The position numbers and the translations under genes are program-made. DNA of 63,934 bases, filler included, from Stramenopiles sp. TOSAG23-6 (taxonomy: Eukaryota), in NCBI GenBank assembly GCA_900128565.1. It is 28 parts of 28 records of this genome, joined end to end, with 100 filler letters (N's around TTAATTAATTAA, not from the genome) between each part and the next. Parts side by side here need not be neighbours in the genome. Positions count along the whole stretch, not along the records: positions 54,940 to 57,113 come from LT638237.1; 27 more parts are not named here. The stretch is one strand, 5' to 3'. The notes below the pieces were generated by a model. That model saw only the letters and a list, made by a program, of their open reading frames with translations. It searched no databases and was not told the DNA's origin. Within the stretch, counting starts at the first letter, position 1; every line of letters starts with the position of its first letter. Below, one piece after another: positions 2,447 through 62,581 of this stretch.

Positions 2447-3170
2447 GTCATTGGTGCCACGAATAGACCTCAAGAATTAGATGAAGCAGCTAGACGTCGT
2501 TTTGTGAAGCGGTTATATATAGCTTTGCCTGTAGGTTTGGATTTTTTTTTTTTTTTTTCATACGAAATTTTGTACCTAACGAAAAAAAATTTGGAAAAAA
2601 AATTTCAGTAAAAAAAAAAAAATATTCTTCACAATATATACTCAAGAAGCTAGAAGTGCATTAATTACTAGATTACTACAAAAAAACAGTTCAAATGTGT
2701 CTAAAAATGAGATTAAACATATTGTTCAAAAATCAAAAGGCTTCTCTGGCTCAGATCTCCATGCTTTATGCACAGAAGCTTCAATATACGTTTTTTTTAT
2801 ACGAAATTGTATACCTAACAAAAAACAAATTTTCAATTTTTTTTTTTCAATTTTTTTTTCAAATTTTTTTTAAATTTTTTTTTTTATAAAAATTTTGTAC
2901 CTAACAAAAAAAATTAATTTTTCAAAAAAAAGAAAAAACTATATTGTTGTACATTATTTGGGACCTATTCGAGATTTAATGACTGGATCTGATATAATGA
3001 CATCAGCAGCAAAAATGAGTGCTGATTCAGTGAGACCAATAAAAATGACTGATTTTGATACCGCATTCCGACAGGTTCGTGCAAGTGTCGCTCAACCAGA
3101 ACTTTTATCGTATATTAAATGGAATGAAGAATTCGGAAGTTTTGGTGAATCCAATGAAAAACAAGACTAA
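2447..3170 (+). CDS. Fidgetin/spastin-like AAA ATPase, C-terminal exons (2447-2530, 2640-~2785, ~2960-3170)
   Basis: Spliced translation [36 protein letters not shown]...[20 protein letters not shown]...WNEEFGS. Confidence 0.9.
2531..2639 (+). other. Family intron, GT..AT
   Basis: CCT|GTAGGT...TTTTGTACCTAAC...CAATATAT|ACT restores LP-TQEAR. Using the internal CAG at ~2608 would give an immediate TAA. Confidence 0.85.
2786..2959 (+). other. Family intron with AT start and two branch motifs (boundary ambiguous by 2 nt)
   Basis: AT|ATACGT...TATTT|G GGA (or 2784-2957, AT..AT) restores EAS(M/L)GPIRD. Confidence 0.7.
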
Positions 3171-5018: not shown

Positions 5019-6660
5019 ATGGTGTATTTTATACGTTTACCCGTTTCCATCCTTATGGGACGAAACAGCAGACGCTGCTTTTTTAGTAAACATTATGTAC
5101 GATCATTCATATCATATCTAGAACCAAACTCATATATGATAAATATATCGTCAAAGCCAATATTTCCATATCGAGTACAGTACATCCGTCCTTTTTCTGA
5201 GTATAAAGAGTCAACAAATACTAGTAGTAGGAATACGTCTCCAACATCTTTAACTGGCCCAAATAGTTTTCAATCAAATTCTACTCCTCCCACAGATGTT
5301 GATGTTGGTACAACAAATACAGTCAATACAACTACAAATACGAATCAAAACAATAAAAACAAATCAAAGAATTCTTCTTCTCGCGTTGACATTGTCAAAG
5401 CTCTTCGAGAAGTGTTAAAAGCAAAAGGCGATGTATGTTTTATTTTTTTTTTACAAAAAAATCGAATTTTTTTTTCATACGAAATTTTGTACCTAACAAA
5501 AAAATTAGATTTTTTTTGAAATATTTTTCTAAAAAACATGGAAAACTATTTCGCATTGATAGACATGATAGCATGTCGGAATATTTAGTAACTGATCCTG
5601 ACTTAGATACAATACCATCAGAGTCTGTAGAAAATCCGATAACAGGTAAAACAATAAAATGGTACAATATTAAAGATGTAAAAACACTTGTCGTTCGGCG
5701 ATGGGGATCGTTTGAAGCCATGTATGTTTTTATTTTTTTTTTTTTATTATGAATTTATATAATTTTTTTTATTTTTTTTCATAGTAAATATTGTACCTAA
5801 CAAAAAACAAAAAAAACAAAAAAAAATTGAAATATTGTTTTTCAATTTTGAATTTTTTTTTTTTCATAGTAAATTTTGTACCTAACGATTTTTTTTTTTT
5901 CGTAAAAAAAAAATATTTTTGTAAAATACATGGAACTTGAGAAAGAAAAACGTCGCAGTGCGTTTTGGAGTCAAAAAAAAAAGAAAATTCGGTTACAAAG
6001 AGAGGATAGTCAGCGTCAATATCAAAAATACCAAAATAAAGACAATACACAACCTTCGAAACAGAAGCATCGATATCGATCGTTGGGTCATGAAGAAAGC
6101 AAAAGTATCTTTTTTATTATGAAATTTTTTTTGTATGAATTTTTTTTTTTTTTTTTTATTATGAATTTTTTTTTGTATGAATTTTTTTTTGTATGAATTT
6201 TTTTTTTTAATGAATTTCAAATTTAATTTTTTTTTTTGAGTTTTTATTTGATAATAATAATATTTTTTTTTGTACCTAACAAAAGTGTATTTAAAAAATT
6301 TTGACATATTTTTTCATATATATCATATCCAAGCACTCGAAAAGGACAAACTAGAGTCTGGCAAGAAAGATTAGGTCATTTAAAAAAACAAAACCCTAAC
6401 CCTAATCATGAAAACCCTAACCCTAATCATGAAACATTCTTGGCAAATGATAATTTGAATAGTATAACAACTCATCCAAGTCGAAGTGATCGATTTGACC
6501 AAAAAATTAATAAACAACATAATTCAATTGATTCAAAATCAGTGGTTGAATTAGCAGTGAAAGGTAATGGAGCTGTTGCAATTATGAAATTTGGTGCATT
6601 TGTACATTTTAATCATGAAATTTTTTACCTACATTATTTTTCATACGAAATTTCGTACCT

Positions 6661-8215: not shown

Positions 8216-8984
8216 ATGATATTTCATCGTGATAATTGGAATCGAAACACAATTCTTGCATTTCTTTTTGCAGCTACAAATAATGCTGCATATGGAGTAT
8301 GGGGATCTCCACTTTTACCTACATTTATTTACATTGTCCAAAATGAACTTGCTACTAAAGTTGGATATGCAGAAGCCGTCCAAGGGGCATTTCAAGCAGC
8401 TCTGGCAATCCCTGCAGGTTGTCTAGCTGATAAAGGTAGTCGTCATTATGTATTAAAATTTGTTTGTTACATGTAAAACTATGTCAAATGATTTATTTCA
8501 ATATATGATCATTTCACTTTGAGTAATGTAGTTTAGTAAATGAGATATATAATACAAATGCACCATTATTTCACATTTTTTCTTTTAACATATTTACCAA
8601 ACATGATATGCAGCGATAGTTCAAATCTTGGCAGCATTGGCTACAGGATATTCTGTGTTAGGCTTCCAAAATAGTAACCCTAACCCTACTACTACTACGA
8701 ATACTCCTACTACTCCTACAAATCATACAACAAGAGATGAACAGTATATGTTTTATTTTTTTTTTTTCTGGAAAAAAAAAAATCGATTTTTTTTTTGGTT
8801 TTCGTACGAAATTTTGTACCTAACAAAAAAATTTAATGTTTTTTTTTTTTGAAATATTTTTCCAAAATACATGGAAATGGTTACTGATTTCGTGCTCACT
8901 ATGGGGATGTTATGCAGGATTATACGGGCCACCTTTGGAAGCTATATTTGGTGATTCAGTAACTACAGGAAAACGAGCTTATAT
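8216..8984 (+). CDS. MFS transporter, N-terminal exons (8216-8461, 8610-8745, 8873-8984)
   Basis: AIPAGCLADKGSRHYVL (MFS motif A-like), hydrophobic helices, PPLEAIFGDSV. Confidence 0.75.
8746..8872 (+). other. Family intron, AT..AT
   Basis: CAG T|ATATGT...AATACAT|GG AAA gives EQ-W-KWLL. The next intron at 8985 also starts ATACGT. Confidence 0.75.
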
Positions 8985-24167: not shown

Positions 24168-25130
24168 ATGATGATTTTCGACACCATTTTTTTCAGTAGA
24201 GCAGCTGTACAAGTGTACGCTGTAGTTGGAGTCATATGGATTGGTCAGTTTCTATTGAGTCTATTGCTCAACTTTCGTTTTTTCAGATTCTTATGTGGTG
24301 AACGTCGCGTAAATTTCCGAAAGTGTAAAGGTTGGGCTGTGGTGACAGGTGCTACTGATGGAATTGGCAAAGCACTTGCAGTGGAGCTTGCTCGTCGTGG
24401 CCTATCAATCGTATTAATATCTCGAACTCAGTCTCGTTTGGATGCTGCTGCTGCTGAGTGTCTTGCTGCAGGTCCAAAGGGAATAAAGACTAAAACAGTG
24501 CAGGTCGATTTTAGTCTCCAGAATGCGGGAATATATGAAAAGCTAGAAGAAGCTTTACAAGGGTTGAATATTTCTGTGCTCATTAACAACGTTGGTGTCT
24601 CCTATCCACATGCTCAATACTTATGTGAAGTAGATGATGCCGTCTTGGATTCTTTGAGCTCAGTAAATGTAAAGGCAATGATGCGTGTTTCAAAAATAGT
24701 TTTGAAGAACGATTTGATGAAAGCTGGTAGTGTGATAATAAACGTAGCTTCAGGTGCTGGTATAATTTCGAGTGATCCATTGTATGCCGGTTATGCAGGT
24801 TCTAAATCTTTTGTTGATGCGTTTTCTCGATCTCTTGCCGTTGAATTGCGACCAAGGAAAATGTACGTTTTCAAATTTGGAAGTTGAAATTTTTTTTTTG
24901 TACGAAATTTTGTACCTAACAAAAAACAATTCTAAAAATATTTTTTCACAATACATTGTCGTTCAGTGCCATTGCCCTCTTTTTGTTGTCTCTAAACTCG
25001 CAAAAATTCGCAAACCATCATTTTTTGTCCCCACTCCTGCAGATTATGCGACGGTGGCCCTCAATTCAGTGTATGAAGGAAAACGTGTAACAATTGTTCC
25101 TCATTGGCCACATCGATTGCAACTTTACAT
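24168..25130 (+). CDS. Very-long-chain 3-oxoacyl-CoA reductase / HSD17B12-like SDR (3' partial)
   Basis: WAVVTGATDGIGKA, LINNVGVSY, YAGSK. After the intron: IVVQCHCPLFVVSKLAKIRK. Confidence 0.9.
24863..24956 (+). other. Family intron, GT..AT
   Basis: AT|GTACGT...CAATACAT|T GTC gives RK-I-VVQ. Confidence 0.88.
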
Positions 25131-28514: not shown

Positions 28515-29578
28515 ATGTTCAACATGTTACTATATGCAGTATTACTCATTGCCGTGTACGTGGTCGAAGGAGGCAGAGAAGGTTTTCATGAAAGTCATGG
28601 AACGTGTGCGGGTTTGTTCAAGCACCATATAATGGAAGAAACTGGAGTTTGCTACAAAAAAATTAATCCCTTGTTGTCTCGTAATGACTGCCCAAACGGT
28701 AACCCCGGTTGTGACTGCGGTGGATATGACTTCACAAAGGGATCCGTTTTAAATTTTGAGGAAACAGATACAGAATGTTGCTCGGCGTTGTTGGATATAC
28801 AGGAGGTATGTTTCTGTCCATGTTGTAGTAAGTTGGAGAGATATCAGAAACCAGCCACGCTTGCATATATTGCGCTGTGCAAAGGACAAACTACTGCGAG
28901 AGAAGCCGCATTGAAAACTGAAGTGGAAGCTGTGGCAGCAAGGGAAGCCGCATTGAAAACTGAAGTGGAAGCTGCGGCAGCAAGGGAAGCCGCCGCATTG
29001 GAAGCTAATTTCGAAGCGGAAGCTGCCGCATTGAAAGCTAAGAAAGATTTGGAAGATATGAAAAATAAACGAGAAGCTCACAAAGTGCAAGTACATGCAG
29101 CAAAAATAATTCAAAAAGAATGGCGTGCGAGAGCTGCGAAGAAAGATCAAGATCGCAAAAACACAGAAGAGAAGGACGGATTTTTCTCATCAAAACGATT
29201 GATATTATATGCTATTATTGGAGGAGCTTTACTTTTTGTGCTTGTTGTATTTATTCTCTGCTGGTGCCGACGGAATAAAAATGTTGAGAAAAGGAAGTTA
29301 ACTATTAAGGAAGGAAATGTATGTTTTATTTTTTTTCAAATTCGAATTTTTGTTTCGTACGAAATTTTGTACCTAACGAATGTTTTTTCAAATATTTTTC
29401 CAAAATACATGCGTCGAGAGTCGTCCATCGAAAACATCACATGGAACCACAGGTAATACAAAAACCAGTGAAGAACTTAAACTGGTTTAAGTTTGGGTTC
29501 CTAAAAACACGAGAAACACCTGCGAATGGCGTTGTAAATGGCGGTAACAGTATTAGTGATAAATGTATACCAGTGTAA
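28515..29578 (+). CDS. Type I membrane protein: Cys-rich ectodomain, AAREAALK repeats, TM; GT..AT intron at 29319-29410
   Basis: Signal peptide and TM LILYAIIGGALLFVLVVFILCW. AAT|intron|GCG joins in frame. Confidence 0.7.
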
Positions 29579-31019: not shown

Positions 31020-31959
31020 ATGTTCTCGCGCCAGGCTATTTTAAGAAGTAATGCTAATATTTTTAAGCGACTATATTCTGTGAAAGCATTAAAAAAGACT
31101 CCATTACATAGTTTGCATATTTCTATGAAAGCATTCATGACAGGCTTTGGCGGTTGGGACATGCCACTTTATTATGAGGATGGAATAATGAAGGAGCACG
31201 TTCACTGCCGTACTGAAGCTGGGCTTTTCGATGTGTCTCATATGTTGGGAATAAAAATCACTGGATCTGATCGTGTATTATTTGCTGAAAAATTTCTCCC
31301 CGCAAATGTTGCTGAGCTTGCAGATGGGCATGGTTGCCTGACAAATATTCCTAACTCTGAGGGCGGACTCATTGATGACTGTATCATTACAAACGCCGGT
31401 GATCATCTTTTTCTTGTAATAAACGCTGGACATGAAGAAAAAGATGTTCCACACATGCATAAGATATTAGATAGTTTTGATGGAGATGCTCATTTTGAGT
31501 TACAAGAAGGAAAAGGCATTCTTATACGTTGAATCTAAAAAAAAAAAAAAAAAAAAAAAAAATCCTAAAAAGCAGTTTGTACCTAATGTTTTTTTTACTA
31601 TTTTTTTATTTTCACAATACATGCACTTCAAGGCCCTAAAGCGACTTCTGTATTAGAAAGACATACTTCCAATGTTGACTTTAGTACGTTTGGATTCATG
31701 ACAGGTCGTTCAATGTCAGTGTACGTTTTTATTTGAATTTCAAATTTATATTTTTTTTTTTGGTTTTCATACAAAATTTTGTACCTAACAAAAAAAATCT
31801 AGACAATATTTTTTCATCTATATGAATGGCACTGAATGTTTTGTGACCAGAAGTGGCTATACAGGAGAAGATGGATATGAAATTTCTGTTGCTGGGGATC
31901 ATACCGAAGCTTTAGCAAAAACATTACTCGGAGAACCTGAAGTAAAACCAATTGGACTT
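31020..31959 (+). CDS. AMT: Glycine cleavage system T protein (aminomethyltransferase), mitochondrial, 3 exons (partial)
   Basis: KTPLH, FGGWDMPLYY, GLFDVSHM, GIL|ALQGPKA, VTRSGYTGEDGYEI. Confidence 0.95.
31524..31622 (+). other. Family intron, AT..AT
   Basis: CTT|ATACGT...GTACCTAAT...CAATACAT|GCA restores GIL-ALQGP. Confidence 0.88.
31721..31823 (+). other. Family intron, GT..AT
   Basis: GT|GTACGT...TCTATAT|G AAT gives MSV-NGTECFVTRSGY. Confidence 0.85.
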
Positions 31960-32129: not shown

Positions 32130-32966
32130 CTTTATACAGTAGTAGTACTGCGCTGGCGATTTTTTGTACGAAATTGTATACCTAACAAAATTTTGAAATT
32201 TTTTGAATTTTTTGTACAATATATGACGATCCTTTAGTGATTTTATCGGACAGTATATTCAACGAAAACATGGTACATTAAAATCCATTATTGATGGATC
32301 TATTTTAGGTACTCATTATGGGTTGGAGTATAGTACCATTGGACAGAGCGCGCGTATTGGGGGTGCAAAAGAGAGATGGGTTGTGGTACGTTTTCATCAT
32401 GAAATTATAGTAAAAAGAATAATATTTTTTTTTTCGTAGTACATTTCGTACCTAACAAATTTTAAAAAAAAATGAAATTGTTTTTTTCACAATACATGTA
32501 GGAAAAGAAAAAAAAGATAATATTGTTTTATGTGCTCCTGGTTTAAAACATCCTTCTATTTATTTTCGTACTATTTATTTACAAAAGTCAGAAATCTGTT
32601 GGATATCAAAAAATGGACCTCCAAGTGATTTGTGTATGTTTTATTTTTTTTCAAANTTNAANTTTTTTTTTTTNGNTTTTCGTACGAAATTTTGTACCTA
32701 ACAAAAAAATTTAGATTTTTTTCAAATTCGATTTTTTTTCAAATTCGATTTTTTTTTTTTGGTTTTTTATAAAAATTTTGTACCTAACAAAAAAATTTAG
32801 ATTTTTTTAAATATTTTTCCAAAATACATACCATAAAAATGGAATGACTGTTTTTTATAGAATTCGTCATGGCCAAAAATTAGGTAAATGTCGTATTCTA
32901 TTGGAAAAAAAGAATTCATCAGATATTCAATACACAAAATATACACAAAATATACAATCAAATACA

Positions 32967-33011
<45 letters not shown>

Positions 33012-33152
33012 GAATTATTTCGTGTTGAATTGGAATTGCCTCAAAGAGCAGTGTCGCCAATGCAAGTGATTGCATTTTATTCAAATAGCTGTGGAGAAAT
33101 ATGTTATGGAGGTGGGCCAATATGTATGTTTTATTTATTTTTTTTTTTTTTC

Positions 33153-33196
<44 letters not shown>

Positions 33197-33248
33197 CAAA
33201 AAAAAAAAATTAAAAAAAAAAATTTTTTTTTTTAATTTTTTTTTTTTG

Positions 33249-33292
<44 letters not shown>

Positions 33293-33433
33293 GAAAAAAA
33301 AAAAAAATAAATAAAACATACATATTGGCCCACCTCCATAACATATTTCTCCACAGCTATTTGAATAAAATGCAATCACTTGCATTGGCGACACTGCTCT
33401 TTGAGGCAATTCCAATTCAACACGAAATAATTC

Positions 33434-33478
<45 letters not shown>

Positions 33479-34315
33479 TGTATTTGATTGTATATTTTGT
33501 GTATATTTTGTGTATTGAATATCTGATGAATTCTTTTTTTCCAATAGAATACGACATTTACCTAATTTTTGGCCATGACGAATTCTATAAAAAACAGTCA
33601 TTCCATTTTTATGGTATGTATTTTGGAAAAATATTTAAAAAAATCTAAATTTTTTTGTTAGGTACAAAATTTTTATAAAAAACCAAAAAAAAAAAATCGA
33701 ATTTGAAAAAAAATCGAATTTGAAAAAAATCTAAATTTTTTTGTTAGGTACAAAATTTCGTACGAAAANCNAAAAAAAAAAANTTNAANTTTGAAAAAAA
33801 ATAAAACATACACAAATCACTTGGAGGTCCATTTTTTGATATCCAACAGATTTCTGACTTTTGTAAATAAATAGTACGAAAATAAATAGAAGGATGTTTT
33901 AAACCAGGAGCACATAAAACAATATTATCTTTTTTTTCTTTTCCTACATGTATTGTGAAAAAAACAATTTCATTTTTTTTTAAAATTTGTTAGGTACGAA
34001 ATGTACTACGAAAAAAAAAATATTATTCTTTTTACTATAATTTCATGATGAAAACGTACCACAACCCATCTCTCTTTTGCACCCCCAATACGCGCGCTCT
34101 GTCCAATGGTACTATACTCCAACCCATAATGAGTACCTAAAATAGATCCATCAATAATGGATTTTAATGTACCATGTTTTCGTTGAATATACTGTCCGAT
34201 AAAATCACTAAAGGATCGTCATATATTGTACAAAAAATTCAAAAAATTTCAAAATTTTGTTAGGTATACAATTTCGTACAAAAAATCGCCAGCGCAGTAC
34301 TACTACTGTATAAAG
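32130..34315. repeat. Whole-contig perfect palindrome centred at 33222/33223 (probable fold-back artefact)
   Basis: The second half is the exact reverse complement, including the N positions. Mirrored ORFs 32844-33314 and 33131-33601. Confidence 0.95.
32225..33123 (+). CDS. TRMU: tRNA 2-thiouridylase, C-terminal exons; GT..AT introns at 32386-32497 and 32634-32829
   Basis: FSDFIGQYI, ILGTHYGLEYSTIGQSARIGG, RIRHGQ, PQRAVSPMQVIAFY, CYGGGPI. Confidence 0.88.
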
Positions 34316-45862: not shown

Positions 45863-47075
45863 GATGTGTTGTCTTTTAATACACACATTGGAATCTATCA
45901 TAGTCGTGTTTTGGTTTTGTGACAAGAAGAAAGGAAATACAAAACTTTCATATCATCTTTATTTTGAAACAATATTAACTTGGACTTCGCTTTTAGCTGA
46001 ATTATCTGTCCAAATAATACATAGCCCAAGTAAAAGTGTATATTGTATGACATTTTTACCCATAACTAGAGGTTTTCGAGTGCTTCGTTTACTCACAGTA
46101 TCGTCATACTTTGATAGAATGTGGAGGGCAATTGTTGTTGCAGTACCAGTTCTATTTGCTCTTTCAGCAGTTTGGTTAGGTCTTACATATTCATACGTAA
46201 TTGTTGGTATGGAACTATTTGGAAAAATTGGTGATAAAGAAGCACTTGCAGGAGAAGTTGATGATTATGCTCCTTTTGGTAGGAATATAGGTAGACTTAG
46301 AATAAATAAAATGCTTCATCAAATTGAAAGAAATAAAAATCCTGCAGCAGATGCATTTGTAAATCACCAACATGTACGTTTTTGTCATTAATTTCCAATT
46401 TTGTTTTTTCGTACGAAATTTCGTACCTAACAAAAAAACAACCAAAAATTTTTTCACAATACATGCACTATTTACTGGTTTTGCATCAACATTAGGTCTA
46501 CTTTGGCAATTGACAGTATCGAATAATTGGCAAGATATGTACGTTTTCACTATGAATTTGAATTCTTTTTACGACGAAAATTTTTTACCTCACGAATTTC
46601 AAATTTCAAATATTTCTTAGGACACATAATGCATCCCAACATTGAGCGTACGAGTCAATACTATTCCTGGTATTTTACAACTTATTATTGGTTATGCCAT
46701 ATGTTCCTATTAGATGTTATTATTGGTGTTGCGATTGATGCTGTACAAAATTTAGATGATGAAGATAATAAAGTGAAAGATAAAGTCAATGAGGGAGGTA
46801 ATCGCCATTCTAGCATATCTAGTTTAGATTACAATACTTCTGGTCTTAGTTGGAATTCACTTTTAGGTTTTTCTGAAGACGTCACAATAGAGAATGTTCT
46901 CAAAGAGGACCACAAAATGGTTGATGGAATGACAGCAAAGTTGACTGCTCAATCAAGAGAAATAGCATACGATACATTTTCAGATCAAACGTCTAAAGCG
47001 GCAAAACTTTGGAAAAAAGCCATCACTGCAGCCATGTCACCTAAAAAGTTTCCTCAACTTCACCAAAAAGACTAA
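45863..47075 (+). CDS. Two-pore/voltage-gated cation channel C-terminus; GT..AT introns at 46374-46464 and 46539-46627
   Basis: S4-like RGFRVLRLL, YVIVGMELFG, pore LTVSNNWQD-I-M, FLLDVIIGVAIDA. Confidence 0.8.
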
Positions 47076-50288: not shown

Positions 50289-50507
50289 NNNNNNNNNNNN
50301 NNNNNNNNNNNNNNNNNNNNNNNNNNNNNNNNTTAATTAATTAANNNNNNNNNNNNNNNNNNNNNNNNNNNNNNNNNNNNNNNNNNNNAAAAAAAGTGTA
50401 TGATCAAAACGAAAAATGTAGTTTGAAAAAAAAAAAATTATATTTTTTTTGTTAGGTACAAAATTTCGTATGAAAAAATAAATCTAAAATTCATGATAAA
50501 AACGTAC

Positions 50508-53147: not shown

Positions 53148-54393
53148 ATGGGATTCGGATTAGTTGCCAAATGTATTGCACTTCTTGCAGTCATTGTAGG
53201 TGTTGTAATTTTCGTCCTTCCTCCAGATGTGCTGAAAGGAATATCATCCAATGTTGTTCTCAATAATTGGCAGCTTCAATTGACCGTAACCGGGTTCTGT
53301 TTTTCGGGGCTTCCGCAAAGATTACTCCAACCTGAACGCGGCCTTGATATTGGCGGTGATTTCGATTTTGCTACTGATGGTGATCTTGAAAACGACGATT
53401 ACAATAAGGCATCGATTTATTCACTTTTGTATGGAATGTATGCGAATGCTGGTACAGTCATCTCTGACTTGGGTGTTCCTTACCAATTCACGTTTAATAC
53501 TTGGGGAATCGCACCAAGTCCGTACCCTGTGAATGATCCACAACGCCACGGCAAAGCGGCATACACAGGTCTCGTTCGTTTCCCACAAGTTCTGGAGTAC
53601 TTAGAAAATGTAACGGATTCTCCGGTCATGGTGGAAATCGGCAGTGGAACTGGAGCCGGAGCTAACCTCATTACTCGTGAACTTATTCCTAAGGCTACAT
53701 ATTATGCCATTGACATGCAAGCTGCTGGTGTAGCCACGTGTAAAAAACTTCATGGTAACGAATCAAATCCAAATCTTAAGTGTGTGCATGCTCCAGAAGG
53801 TATTGGAGTGGGTGGTAATCGTGTAAAATATCCTGACGGTAGCTTAATGCCTGACCATTCCGTTGATTTCGTGATTATCTGTGAAACTCATATTGCAGAT
53901 GTCGAAATTGGAGTAGAAGAAAAAGCAATATTCGCTGAAATTCACCGTATTTTGAAACCAGGAGGATATTTCTTATGGGGTAATGCTTTACCTACGCGAG
54001 TTTGGAATGCTGCCGTTCCTTATCTCAACGATAATGGTTTTAGTCGTCAAATGAGTTTAAATCACACTGCCGGTGCCATTACTGCGCGAGACGAAGATGA
54101 AAACCGTGTAAACGCGTACTGCGATTCCCTTATGGGTGGATTCCCCGTCTTCAAGGCTCCATTTGGTTGGGGTGACGAGTGCCATCTTGTCACTGATCGA
54201 CTCATTAAAAACTTTTACAGACATCCTGGTACTGTACGTTTTCATCATCAATATCAAATCTATTTATTTTTTTATAAAAATTTTGTACCTAACAAAAACA
54301 ATTTGAAAATATTTTCCTAAAATACATGCGTTGTATTTGAAGATGGTTACTGGTTTTGATTCATATATGCATGAAGCATACCAAGCAAATTGA
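53148..54393 (+). CDS. SAM-dependent methyltransferase with N-terminal anchor; GT..AT intron at 54234-54327
   Basis: VEIGSGTGAG, FAEIHRILKPGG. ACT|intron|GCG gives RHPGT-ALYLKMVTGFDSY. Confidence 0.85.
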
Positions 54394-55516: not shown

Positions 55517-55935
55517 GGATATATATAATCAAAAAAGAATAGTTATTGTGCAACAACAATACAACAACAAGGAGTTGTATTAAGAAGTAAGTCTCAAGAA
55601 GAAGCATCGGAGTTGTTAATCTAGTCAATACCCACAGTTACAGATTTCCGCAGAAATCTCCTCAAATTGACGACCGCCGATATACGGTACCGGGTATTAT
55701 TTTTCTGTGTGGAACACAGCGACAGCTCGTGTGAACAACTCACAGAAAGCCTCATTCTACGGGTACATTTTTTCACACCTGTTTCGCAATTCTCTATTTG
55801 CATTACAAAGTCTTATTTTATCTCTCGGAGTAAGAAGAACACATAGATAAGATTCTGCTAAAGTTTGGAGTTACACCAAGCAAAGATAAAAGAAAAAAAA
55901 CCTATTGGTGCAAACATTATTTAGAAAAAAACAGT

Positions 55936-56878
55936 ATGTTTTCATATCGATTAGTGAGTTGGGCTAGAGCTGCAGGCATAGCAAACGTTTGCCGAAGAGG
56001 TTTAGCCCAATCTGCTGCGGGTAAAGTGGTTGTTGGGTCTCAAAGTATAAAGCCACGCCGTAGACGACAACTTAAGGCTGCTCTTTCATTGGTACGTACA
56101 ATTTGCCATATTTTGTGTTTTATAGAATTTGCTTTGTATGATGCATTGCTTTTGTTATTCTGTGTTATATCATTTTCACTATGCTCTCCACACTTGATGA
56201 CATTATTTATATCAATATGATACAAACGACATCTTTTTAACAAAGAATACTCTTTATGATATCATTATTTCCATAGACTGATGCAGCTGCTGATAGAGTA
56301 AAAGAATTATTAGAAGGAAAAGATGATGTACGTTTTCATTATGACTTTTCAAATTTATTTTTTTCGTAGGGAATTTTCTATCTAACAAATTTCATTTTTT
56401 TGTAATATTTTCCCAAAATATATGTTATTGGAGTTCGTATTGGAGTCAAAACTAGGGGATGCAATGGACTTTCATACACAATGAATTATGCAAAAGAAAC
56501 AGAAAAGTTTGAGGAGGTAGTAAAAGAAAAAGGCGTGACTGTTGTAATAGAATCAAAAGCGCTAATGCATGTATGTTTTACTTTTTTTCGATTTTGAATT
56601 TATTTTTTTTCGTACGAAATTTTGTACCTAACATTTTTTTTTGAGTAAAAAAAAAATATTTTTACAAAATACATGTACGTTTTTCATAAGGAATTAATTT
56701 TTTTTTTAGTAAAAAGAGAAGTTTTTTTTAACAAAAAAATTAATTTGATATATTTTTCACAACACATGTCGTAGGTACAACAATGGACTACGCAACAGAT
56801 GAAATATCTGCAGAGTTTGTGTTTCATAATCCAAATGCTAAAGGAGCTTGTGGTTGTGGAGAAAGTTTTAATACATAA
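55936..56878 (+). CDS. ISCA1: Iron-sulfur cluster assembly protein IscA/Isa1, mitochondrial, complete (exons 55936-56091, 56277-56327, 56424-56570, 56768-56878)
   Basis: AALSL|TDAAADRVKELL...|VIGVRIGVKTRGCNGLSY...KALMH|VVGTTMDY...NPNAKGACGCGESF. Confidence 0.95.
56092..56276 (+). other. Ordinary non-family GT..AG intron
   Basis: TTG|GTACGT...CCATAG|ACT, without the family motifs. Confidence 0.88.
56328..56423 (+). other. Family intron, GT..AT
   Basis: GAT|GTACGT...AAATATAT|GTT. Confidence 0.88.
56571..56767 (+). other. Two back-to-back family introns (56571-56674 and 56675-56767) with no exon between them
   Basis: CAT|GTATGT...AATACAT|GTACGT...AACACAT|GTC. Confidence 0.85.
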
Positions 56879-57277
56879 TCACAGTAAAAGTAATGAAAAT
56901 AAATGTTAAATCACTGTATGATCACTATAAAAGTAATGAAAATAAATGTTAAATTACTGTATTAGATGTTACATATTTGAAATTGAATCTGTACTACATT
57001 CTGGTAAACATATACATCACCTATCTCTCTTTTTACTATCGACTGCACTGAGTACTACCAGAAGTCACTTAACTCATGATACAATCAGAAGTCACTTAAC
57101 TCATGATACAATCNNNNNNNNNNNNNNNNNNNNNNNNNNNNNNNNNNNNNNNNNNNNTTAATTAATTAANNNNNNNNNNNNNNNNNNNNNNNNNNNNNNN
57201 NNNNNNNNNNNNNGAAAACCAAAAAAAAAAAAAAAAAAAAATTCATCGTAAAAAAAAAATTCATAATGAAAATGTAC

Positions 57278-61875: not shown

Positions 61876-62581
61876 ATACACTGCATTAATTTTGATGGGA
61901 TAAGCATCTTGATAGATTTTTGAAATTCTCTTTTCATGGATGTTGCAAAAATATTTCAAAAAAAATCTAAAAAAATTGTTAGGTACAAAATTTCCTATAA
62001 AAAAAAAAATTCGAAATTGAAAAAAAAATAAAACATACATCCAATATTTCCCAAGCCTCTTTAAAATCTTCATACGCCAAATGATACTCACCTAGACTAC
62101 AGTATGCGCGTCCCCGACTATAAAAAAGAAGATGAACGGGGCAATCAAAATGCTCAAAGCTACCTTTTTGTACCCAATGTAAAGCATTTGTGAACTCTGC
62201 AACGGCAGATCGAGGCCGATTCATATGTTTTTTGGCAGCATTATAACAATTCCAAAATTCCATTATCATTTTATTTTGATGGCAAGTGTTACTATTTCCC
62301 AAAAATAGCTCAGACTCTGAAGAGACTGCCTGTATATCTAAGTGCTTATCAATAGAGTTGGAACATTCCCTTTCCAGAGAAACAAATTCATCATGTATTG
62401 AAGCTTCATCTTTTTCAGTTATCGTGATATTATCTTGATATACGTTTTGCTGGGAAGCAACTACAGCTTTTGCGCTTTGTACAGCAAATTCTGTCATTGC
62501 TTGCAAAACTAAACGCTCTTGTAGTAACGCAAGACGCCGAAGGTGGTCAACCATATCGGCATCAGCTTCCAATAGTGTCAT
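61876..62581 (-). CDS. TPR-containing protein (partial); GT..AT intron at 61936-62038
   Basis: LFYSRGRAYCSLGEYHLAYEDFKEA. Confidence 0.7.

Follow-up and report, generated by a model that had tools for sequence, protein, structure and literature searches.

Head-to-tail copies of a putative mobile intron family in the ISCA gene of Stramenopiles sp. TOSAG23-6

Introduction

Introner elements have been described in Micromonas, Aureococcus, dinoflagellates and other lineages (Gozashti et al. 2022, PMC9860276; 2025, PMC12130899). The 2025 survey of introners started from annotated introns and accepted AG and AC as 3' ends (PMC12130899). Non-canonical repeated introns have been reported from Amoebophrya (Farhat et al. 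2021, PMC7789003) and from tunicates (PMC13326754). Splice sites that abut with no exonic nucleotide between them are known from recursive splicing: zero-nucleotide exons occur at the ratchet points of Drosophila (bioRxiv 10.1101/006163), and two zero-length exons, associated with short introns, have been described in S. pombe (bioRxiv 10.1101/226894). Finally, the stwintrons (spliceosomal twin introns) of fungi are complex intervening sequences composed of a pair of U2-type introns, the removal of which may take successive reactions; some stwintrons are repeated and mobile (PMC8469720, PMC9024468). We found no report of introners or of GT...AT introns in MAST lineages in the open-access literature. 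The MAST single-cell genome paper contains the word 'intron' twice, at least once in its methods.

Here we analyse a 63,934-nt stretch of DNA (the window) from assembly GCA_900128565.1 of Stramenopiles sp. TOSAG23-6. The window has a G+C content of ~32% and consists of contigs of ~2.2 kb that are chained via N44-TTAATTAATTAA-N44 linkers. On the contig at 54940-57113, the + strand carries an ISCA gene in which two units, E1 and E2, lie head to tail within 197 nt. On balance, we lean towards the view that E1 and E2 belong to a high-copy family of mobile introns ('introners') and were inserted separately, and that they would be removed stepwise.

Results

The ISCA gene and its intervening sequences

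Frame reading and collinearity with relatives resolved the ISCA gene into four exons on the + strand, separated by introns that are all phase 0 (Table 1). The gene product is a mitochondrial-type ISCA. PF01521 (Fe-S_biosyn) was found in 31 of 31 protein matches to the exon 3 query, and the C-terminal CGCGESF motif is present. The closest database protein, P0001, is 98% identical over exon 3 and, to judge from its source label ('eukprot:GSMAST32...'), probably represents a MAST-3-type marine stramenopile. The protein collection contained no spliced protein of the same organism among the 31 longer and four near-length matches to exon 3, of which only P0001 exceeded 78% identity. When the same collection was queried with the reductase described below, P0036 alone exceeded 68% identity.

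In the frame test, intron 1, which lies outside the mobile family, gave 86 open codons at offset 0 versus at most 13 at other offsets. Intron 2 matched positions 1-96 of the family profile with 41.8 bits and gave 85 open codons versus at most 20; its predicted junction, GKDD-VIGVRIGV, is collinear with relatives. The 3' region of the gene also contains short tandem duplications, at 56875-56960 (43 nt x2, 91%) and at 57053-57106 (27 nt x2, 93%).

Table 1. Positions of the ISCA gene features, of the abutting units and of other family copies in the window
Feature	Position	Strand	Description
ISCA exon 1	55936-56091	+	MFSYRL...KAALSL; frame reading; collinear with P0002-P0004
ISCA intron 1	56092-56276	+	185 nt; GTACGT...TTAAC...CCATAG; GT-AG; outside mobile family
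ISCA exon 2	56277-56327	+	TDAAADRVKELLEGKDD; frame reading, relatives
ISCA intron 2	56328-56423	+	96 nt; family copy; GTACGT...CTAAC...ATATAT; GT-AT
ISCA exon 3	56424-56570	+	VIGVRIGVKTRGCNGLSY...ESKALMH; last bases AAAGCGCTAATGCAT at 56570
E1 + E2 stretch	56571-56767	+	197 nt between the His and Val codons of ISCA
E1	56571-56674	+	104 nt; family copy; GTATGT...TACCTAAC...ACAT
E1 5' site	56571-56576	+	GTATGT
E1 branch-like motif	56625-56632	+	TACCTAAC (GTACCTAAC ending 56632); A at 56631, 43 nt from end
E1 3' end	56671-56674	+	ACAT; tail AAAATACAT
Inner junction	56674/56675	+	ACAT|GTACGT; E1 3' end directly against E2 5' site
E2	56675-56767	+	93 nt; diverged family copy; GTACGT...TTAAC...ACAT
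E2 5' site	56675-56680	+	GTACGT
E2 branch-like motif	56728-56732	+	TTAAC; A at 56731, 36 nt from end
E2 3' end	56764-56767	+	ACAT; tail CACAACACAT
ISCA exon 4	56768-56878	+	starts GTCGTAGGTACAACAATGGAC; VVGTTMDY...CGCGESFNT; stop TAA 56876-56878
Family copy	5433-5539		example; GT...AT, usual ends
Family copy	24863-24956		example; GT...AT, usual ends
Family copy	29319-29410		example; GT...AT, usual ends
Family copy	46374-46464		example; GT...AT, usual ends
Family copy	54234-54327		example; GT...AT, usual ends
A-start family copy	31524-31622		ATACGT or ATATGT start, AT end
Probable A-start family copy	8746-8872		ATACGT or ATATGT start, AT end
Probable A-start family copy	2790-2944		ATACGT or ATATGT start, AT end
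Probable double-core intron	2790-2954		two GTACCTAAC cores, no inner 3'|5' junction
Double-core intron	5722-5931		210 nt; two GTACCTAAC cores, no inner 3'|5' junction
Double-core intron	32634-32829		196 nt; two GTACCTAAC cores, no inner 3'|5' junction; copy at 33811-33616

The third intervening sequence consists of E1 and E2 with zero bases between them, which on direct reading constitutes a zero-length exon. Inside this intervening sequence, a 3' site of the family's own end type thus stands against a 5' site. Among the 26 AT|GTAYGTTT sites in the window, the one at 56675 is the only one to be preceded by an intron tail. An earlier, sequence-only reading had proposed that two complete units of different subfamilies abut here. 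Both parts of the proposal hold: the two units can be read directly and were each aligned end to end by the family profile, and their end types differ (GTATGTTTTA...AAAATACAT in E1 and GTACGTTTTTCAT...CACAACACAT in E2). Against a family profile built without E1 and E2, both units aligned to positions 1-96 of 97, E1 with 36.8 bits and E2 with 6.6 bits. E2 reached E = 0.47 in the profile search of the whole window, a value that is not callable on score alone, and we assigned it to the family because its 5' and 3' ends, not its middle, are conserved. E2 is the most diverged family copy, with a decayed middle and both ends kept; E1 is near the family consensus.

An Rfam search of the window yielded no match. 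RNA folding z-scores relative to shuffled sequences were -1.4 for E1, 0.0 for intron 2 and -1.2 for the whole 197 nt, none of which folded better than shuffles, and -2.1 for E2, which was weakly better. With this weak exception, folding gave no reason to invoke pairing of the intron ends as a mechanism, and we rejected it.

A dense intron family in the window

The family core, GAAATTTTGTACCTAAC, had 52 matches in the window at up to 3 mismatches, and 27 copies were curated and aligned. The profile built without E1 and E2 gave 80 matches at E<=1 in 64 kb, a number that includes antisense shadows and one duplicated contig. The density of the family is ~1 copy per 1.2 kb. Its many copies are similar in sequence and occupy unrelated positions in unrelated genes, as is characteristic of introners. 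The copies are built from a 5' module (GTAYGTTTT...), a middle module (...CGTACGAAATTTTGTACCTAAC) and a 3' module (...AAATATTTTT(C)CA(A/C)AAYACAT). Two end types occur: GTATGTTTTATTTT...CCAAAATACAT, which E1 fits, and GTACGTTTTCATCATGAATTT...CACAAYACAT, which E2 fits.

A few copies depart from the usual layout. The aminomethyltransferase exons on either side of the A-start copy at 31524-31622 occupy collinear stretches of Pfam GCV_T (profile to ~142, then from 142). When this junction was compared with the PDB, the 32-aa exon had no match and the upstream alignment ended early. The double-core introns may be collapsed head-to-tail pairs or internal duplications. The contig that carries one of them, 32130-34315, is self-mirrored around 33223, with the centre within an intron copy, and is probably an amplification or assembly chimera.

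Summed contig depth over the E1 core region (56546-56691) exceeded 10,000 in two RNA runs and 50,000 in a DNA run. Repeats related to E1 must thus be plentiful in the seawater samples concerned, whether in the form of RNA or of carried-over DNA.

The ends of the family

The 3' boundaries were evaluated by splicing out all curated introns together and shifting each boundary by -2 to +2 nt. The curated boundary gave the unique longest junction-spanning open frame at 20 of 25 informative junctions, the chance level being one in three per junction; 16 of these 20 end in AT and 4 in AG. At a further four junctions the flanks are short and non-discriminating, and the last one is that of the copy at 8744, which fits only if its 5' end is moved 2 nt later, so as to start with A. 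This chain-aware test superseded a simple best-frame test (17/26), which was misled by short exons.

Homology supports the curated ends at three junctions: ISCA intron 2, ISCA E1 + E2, and a 3-oxoacyl-CoA reductase in which ELRPRK-IVVQCH is collinear with P0037 and P0038. At each of these three junctions, the source's GT-AG models (P0001, P0036) lose conserved residues. As shown by frame and homology, the predicted ends of the family are mostly GT...AT, with a few AT...AT or GT...AG. The same evidence supports each copy being an intron that would leave the message. In the copy at 46539-46627, an AG at 46619-46620 is skipped and the ACAT end 7 nt further on is alone in frame (149 open codons versus at most 28), which suggests that the ACAT end is specifically recognised.

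U12-type introns have the 5' consensus /RTATCCTT and the branch consensus TCCTTAAC. The family does not belong to the U12-type AT-AC class, its 5' ends being GTAYGT. Formally, E1 and E2 can each be read 2 nt leftward as AT...AC. Such a shift is impossible for 11 of 26 copies, whose 5' exons do not end in AT, and GT...AT is therefore the general reading.

Removal of the pair

Five splicing models were compared for the 197-nt stretch. Removal of all 197 nt yielded a 154-aa ISCA that aligned with P0004 with 0 gaps over 139 columns. When E1 was kept, a stop occurred at 126 aa, and when E2 was kept, at 122 aa. The relatives P0002, P0003 and P0004 have an ungapped KAL[LF]HVVGTTMD[YF] at this position, and the claim of the sequence-only reading that both units must leave to give KALMH-VVGTTMDY is thereby borne out. 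In the Pfam Fe-S_biosyn profile, residues 4-48 of exon 3 correspond to positions 23-76 and residues 3-32 of exon 4 to positions 81-110; the two matches are thus collinear, with an offset of at most one profile position at the junction. They score 23.1 and 21.4 bits, under the cut-off of 26.3, because each piece is a fragment.

Both units of the pair start with a 5' site of yeast-like sequence (GTAYGT) and finish with ACAT, the non-AG end that is usual in the family; a branch-like YTAAC lies 36-43 nt before that end. Both would presumably be removed by the spliceosome. Three routes would yield the same mRNA: E1 first, E2 first, or both units in one step. Stepwise ("recursive") removal, for which the sequence-only reading put the pair forward as a candidate, is plausible. 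While being transcribed, the perfect-consensus E1 would be matched to a branch site and an ACAT that both belong to it. Its removal would join exon 3 (...CAT) to GTACGT and so give back to the E2 5' site the exact context of the time before E1 was inserted; E2 would then leave as it did at that time. We favour E1 as the first to leave because it is transcribed first and because its branch motif, 43 nt ahead of the ACAT at its end, has the consensus sequence.

The pair might instead be removed in one step, as a composite 197-nt intron that uses the 5' site of E1 with the branch and 3' end of E2 or, in a variant, combines the E1 branch with the distal 3' end; on this route the ACAT|GTACGT in the middle would never be used. 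The final mRNA would be identical to the stepwise product. Both double-core introns bear on this route, as they are in frame only when taken whole (5722-5931, 88 open codons versus at most 64; 32634-32829, 98 versus at most 29). One-step removal of ~200 nt past an upstream decoy core is therefore feasible here. Nevertheless, the branch motif of E1 matches that of the family perfectly, and E1 has an ACAT of its own at 43 nt, the distance that is usual for the family. Moreover, if ACAT is specifically recognised, as the copy at 46539 suggests, it would be recognised at 56674 too. We consider one-step removal a possible but doubtful route, and stepwise removal the one to be preferred.

Origin of the pair

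Similarity between the two units amounts to 60%, compared with 80% between E1 and the copy at 62038(-) and 72% between E2 and the copy at 50507(-). Because each unit resembles a copy elsewhere more closely than it resembles its neighbour, two separate insertions appear likelier than duplication in place. If a single resident intron had been duplicated in tandem and the two copies had then diverged, this would account for the overall layout that E1 and E2 have in common and for the short direct repeats that they share (31 nt at 84%, 26 nt at 77%). Such a duplication is difficult to reconcile with the low overall similarity of the units, with their different end types and with the occurrence of each unit's closer relatives in other genes, and we judge it very unlikely.

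Two insertions at one site are readily accommodated by the site preference of the family. The 5' exon ends in AT at 15 of 26 copies, as compared to an AT dinucleotide frequency of 9.8%, and the 3' exon starts with G at 17 of 26, as compared to 17% G. The family inserts preferentially at AT|G sites, and every copy recreates AT|G at its own borders. That the second unit inserted at the CAT|GT border of the first, as had been proposed from the sequence, is plausible: the AT|G bias would be satisfied by a CAT|GT on either side of a copy already in place. In a rough model that uses the observed site bias, ~0.5 abutting pairs are expected per 50 insertions. A single pair is thus no anomaly but a by-product that the bias leads one to expect.

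E1 is probably the later arrival, inserted at the border between exon 3 and E2, since it has stayed near the consensus and E2 has decayed; the profile on which this age contrast is based is dominated by core-keeping copies and may be biased against E2. In related metagenome ISCA loci, an intron between MH and VVG was present in none of the 34 loci checked of 37, the other three (L032, L033 and L036) having the same coordinate pattern as L031 and L035. The family core was found in 0 of the 37 loci. The best segments of these 37 relatives are 35-67% identical, and none is of the same species. On sequence comparison, the E1/E2 position is a recent, lineage-specific intron gain.

The aligned copies contained neither long terminal inverted repeats nor a clear target-site duplication, and their shared ends amount to ~ATGTA/TACAT. 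The 5' flank is AT at 15 of 26 copies and most introns end in AT; a 2-nt duplication would require that 11 flanks have changed since.

The database gene model

For the ISCA gene, the protein collection carries a different model (P0001), in which a canonical GT-AG intron opens with a cryptic GT at 56575, closes with the AG at 56773-56774 and leaves the junction KALMHVC-TTMDY. This model preserves the frame and most of the ISCA C-terminus. As compared to full removal, it has one residue fewer and loses the Gly of VVGT that is kept by all relatives shown. The full-removal model scores 475, 547 and 449 against P0002, P0003 and P0004, respectively, and the database model 453, 525 and 427, which is 22 lower in each case, with one extra gap. 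The database model also bypasses a perfect GTATGT 4 nt upstream. Finally, models from the same source lose conserved residues at ISCA intron 2 and in the reductase (P0036), and the GT...AT reading restores them. It is thus most improbable that the database model is right. Another GT-AG candidate, GT(56571)-AG(56774), was rejected as the ISCA C-terminus is lost.

Support from reads

One DNA run (X3) and three RNA runs (X5, X6 and X8) were used, as assembled contigs. An X3 contig, 56647-57088, comprises 28 nt from the E1 tail together with the complete E2 and exon 4, and has no difference from the window within 56647-56878. Its 28 nt to the left of the E1|E2 join are 3 nt under the 31-nt bridging rule. 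Exon 3 had no contig cover in X3, X5, X6 or X8. The tandem structure claimed by the sequence-only reading is thus supported by independent DNA from the tail of E1 through E2 to exon 4, and the continuity of exon 3 with E1 comes from the assembly alone.

Among the joints listed, 56570, 56674/56675 and 56768 were crossed by no contig of the three RNA runs; contigs of this kind cannot reveal rare intermediates. RNA-run contigs extended from exon 1 through intron 1 (X5, 55945-56216; X6, 55931-56207; X8, 56028-56332) and also covered the 3' end of the gene (56859-57016), in both regions collinear with DNA. As they are collinear with DNA through intron 1, the RNA-run contigs on the ISCA gene may be unspliced RNA or DNA carry-over.

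An assembly artefact, in which two alleles or loci with one unit each were joined inside a shared repeat, is the least credible explanation of the pair: although window contigs (~2.2 kb) often break inside family copies, contig 32130-34315 appears as a mirror-image chimera and the passage from exon 3 to E1 is without independent cover, a separate DNA run (X3) has the tail of E1 followed by E2 and exon 4 on a single contig, and at the join the sequence common to the two units is too limited for a misjoin mediated by a repeat.

Discussion

The tandem pair in the ISCA gene is a real structure and, given its family, a statistically unremarkable one. It provides a natural test of how an intron-definition spliceosome deals with a 3' site set against a 5' site when the chemistry is non-AG. 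It also suggests a way in which longer composite introns come about in dense families of mobile introns.

Of wider significance is the family of GT...AT introns itself, which we did not find described for these stramenopiles in the open-access literature. A class of GT...AT introns at ~1 copy per 1.2 kb would explain the losses of conserved residues in the GT-AG-only models P0001 and P0036. It would further imply systematic mis-prediction of the gene sets of such uncultured protists, and surveys that start from annotated GT-AG introns would overlook such families. We tentatively raise a broader scenario, which we hold to be speculative. Mobile introns with GT...AT, sometimes AT...AT, as their normal ends might occur genome-wide in this stramenopile lineage, and its spliceosome might routinely accept U as the last intron nucleotide and be able to skip a nearby AG. 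Targeting of AT|G would create AT|GT ratchets, the one in the ISCA gene among them, that are removed in two steps and that later collapse by small deletions into double-core introns like those in the window.

The family resembles the repeated introns of Amoebophrya and tunicates in being invasive and repeated and in escaping the GT-AG rule on a genomic scale. Those introns have highly variable end dinucleotides and inverted repeats that pair the ends. By contrast, the family in the window has one dominant arrangement, GTAYGT...YTAAC...ACAT, and folds like shuffled sequence. With stwintrons, the pair shares the property of being a complex intervening sequence composed of two introns. However, in a stwintron one of the signals of the outer intron (donor, branch or acceptor) is split by the inner intron, whereas the signals of E1 and E2 are intact and the units abut without overlap.

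The family resembles introners in several respects. It consists of many similar copies of ~100 nt in unrelated genes and positions, is lineage-specific, and its copies coincide with predicted introns and bring their own splice signals. Unlike introners, which are GT-AG, it has mostly GT...AT ends, and neither a clear target-site duplication nor long inverted repeats at the termini were found. A survey that starts from annotated introns and accepts AG and AC as 3' ends would probably miss a GT...AT family lying under gene models forced to GT-AG.

Finally, the pair shares an arrangement with recursive splicing at zero-length exons, a 3' site directly against a 5' site, such that removal of the upstream unit would regenerate a 5' site at the end of the exon. 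The ratchet point would be AT|GT here, as opposed to AG|GT, and the distance is 197 nt instead of tens of kilobases. Moreover, in contrast to recursive sites that are conserved as an aid to processing, the site in the ISCA gene appears to have been made by two mobile copies.
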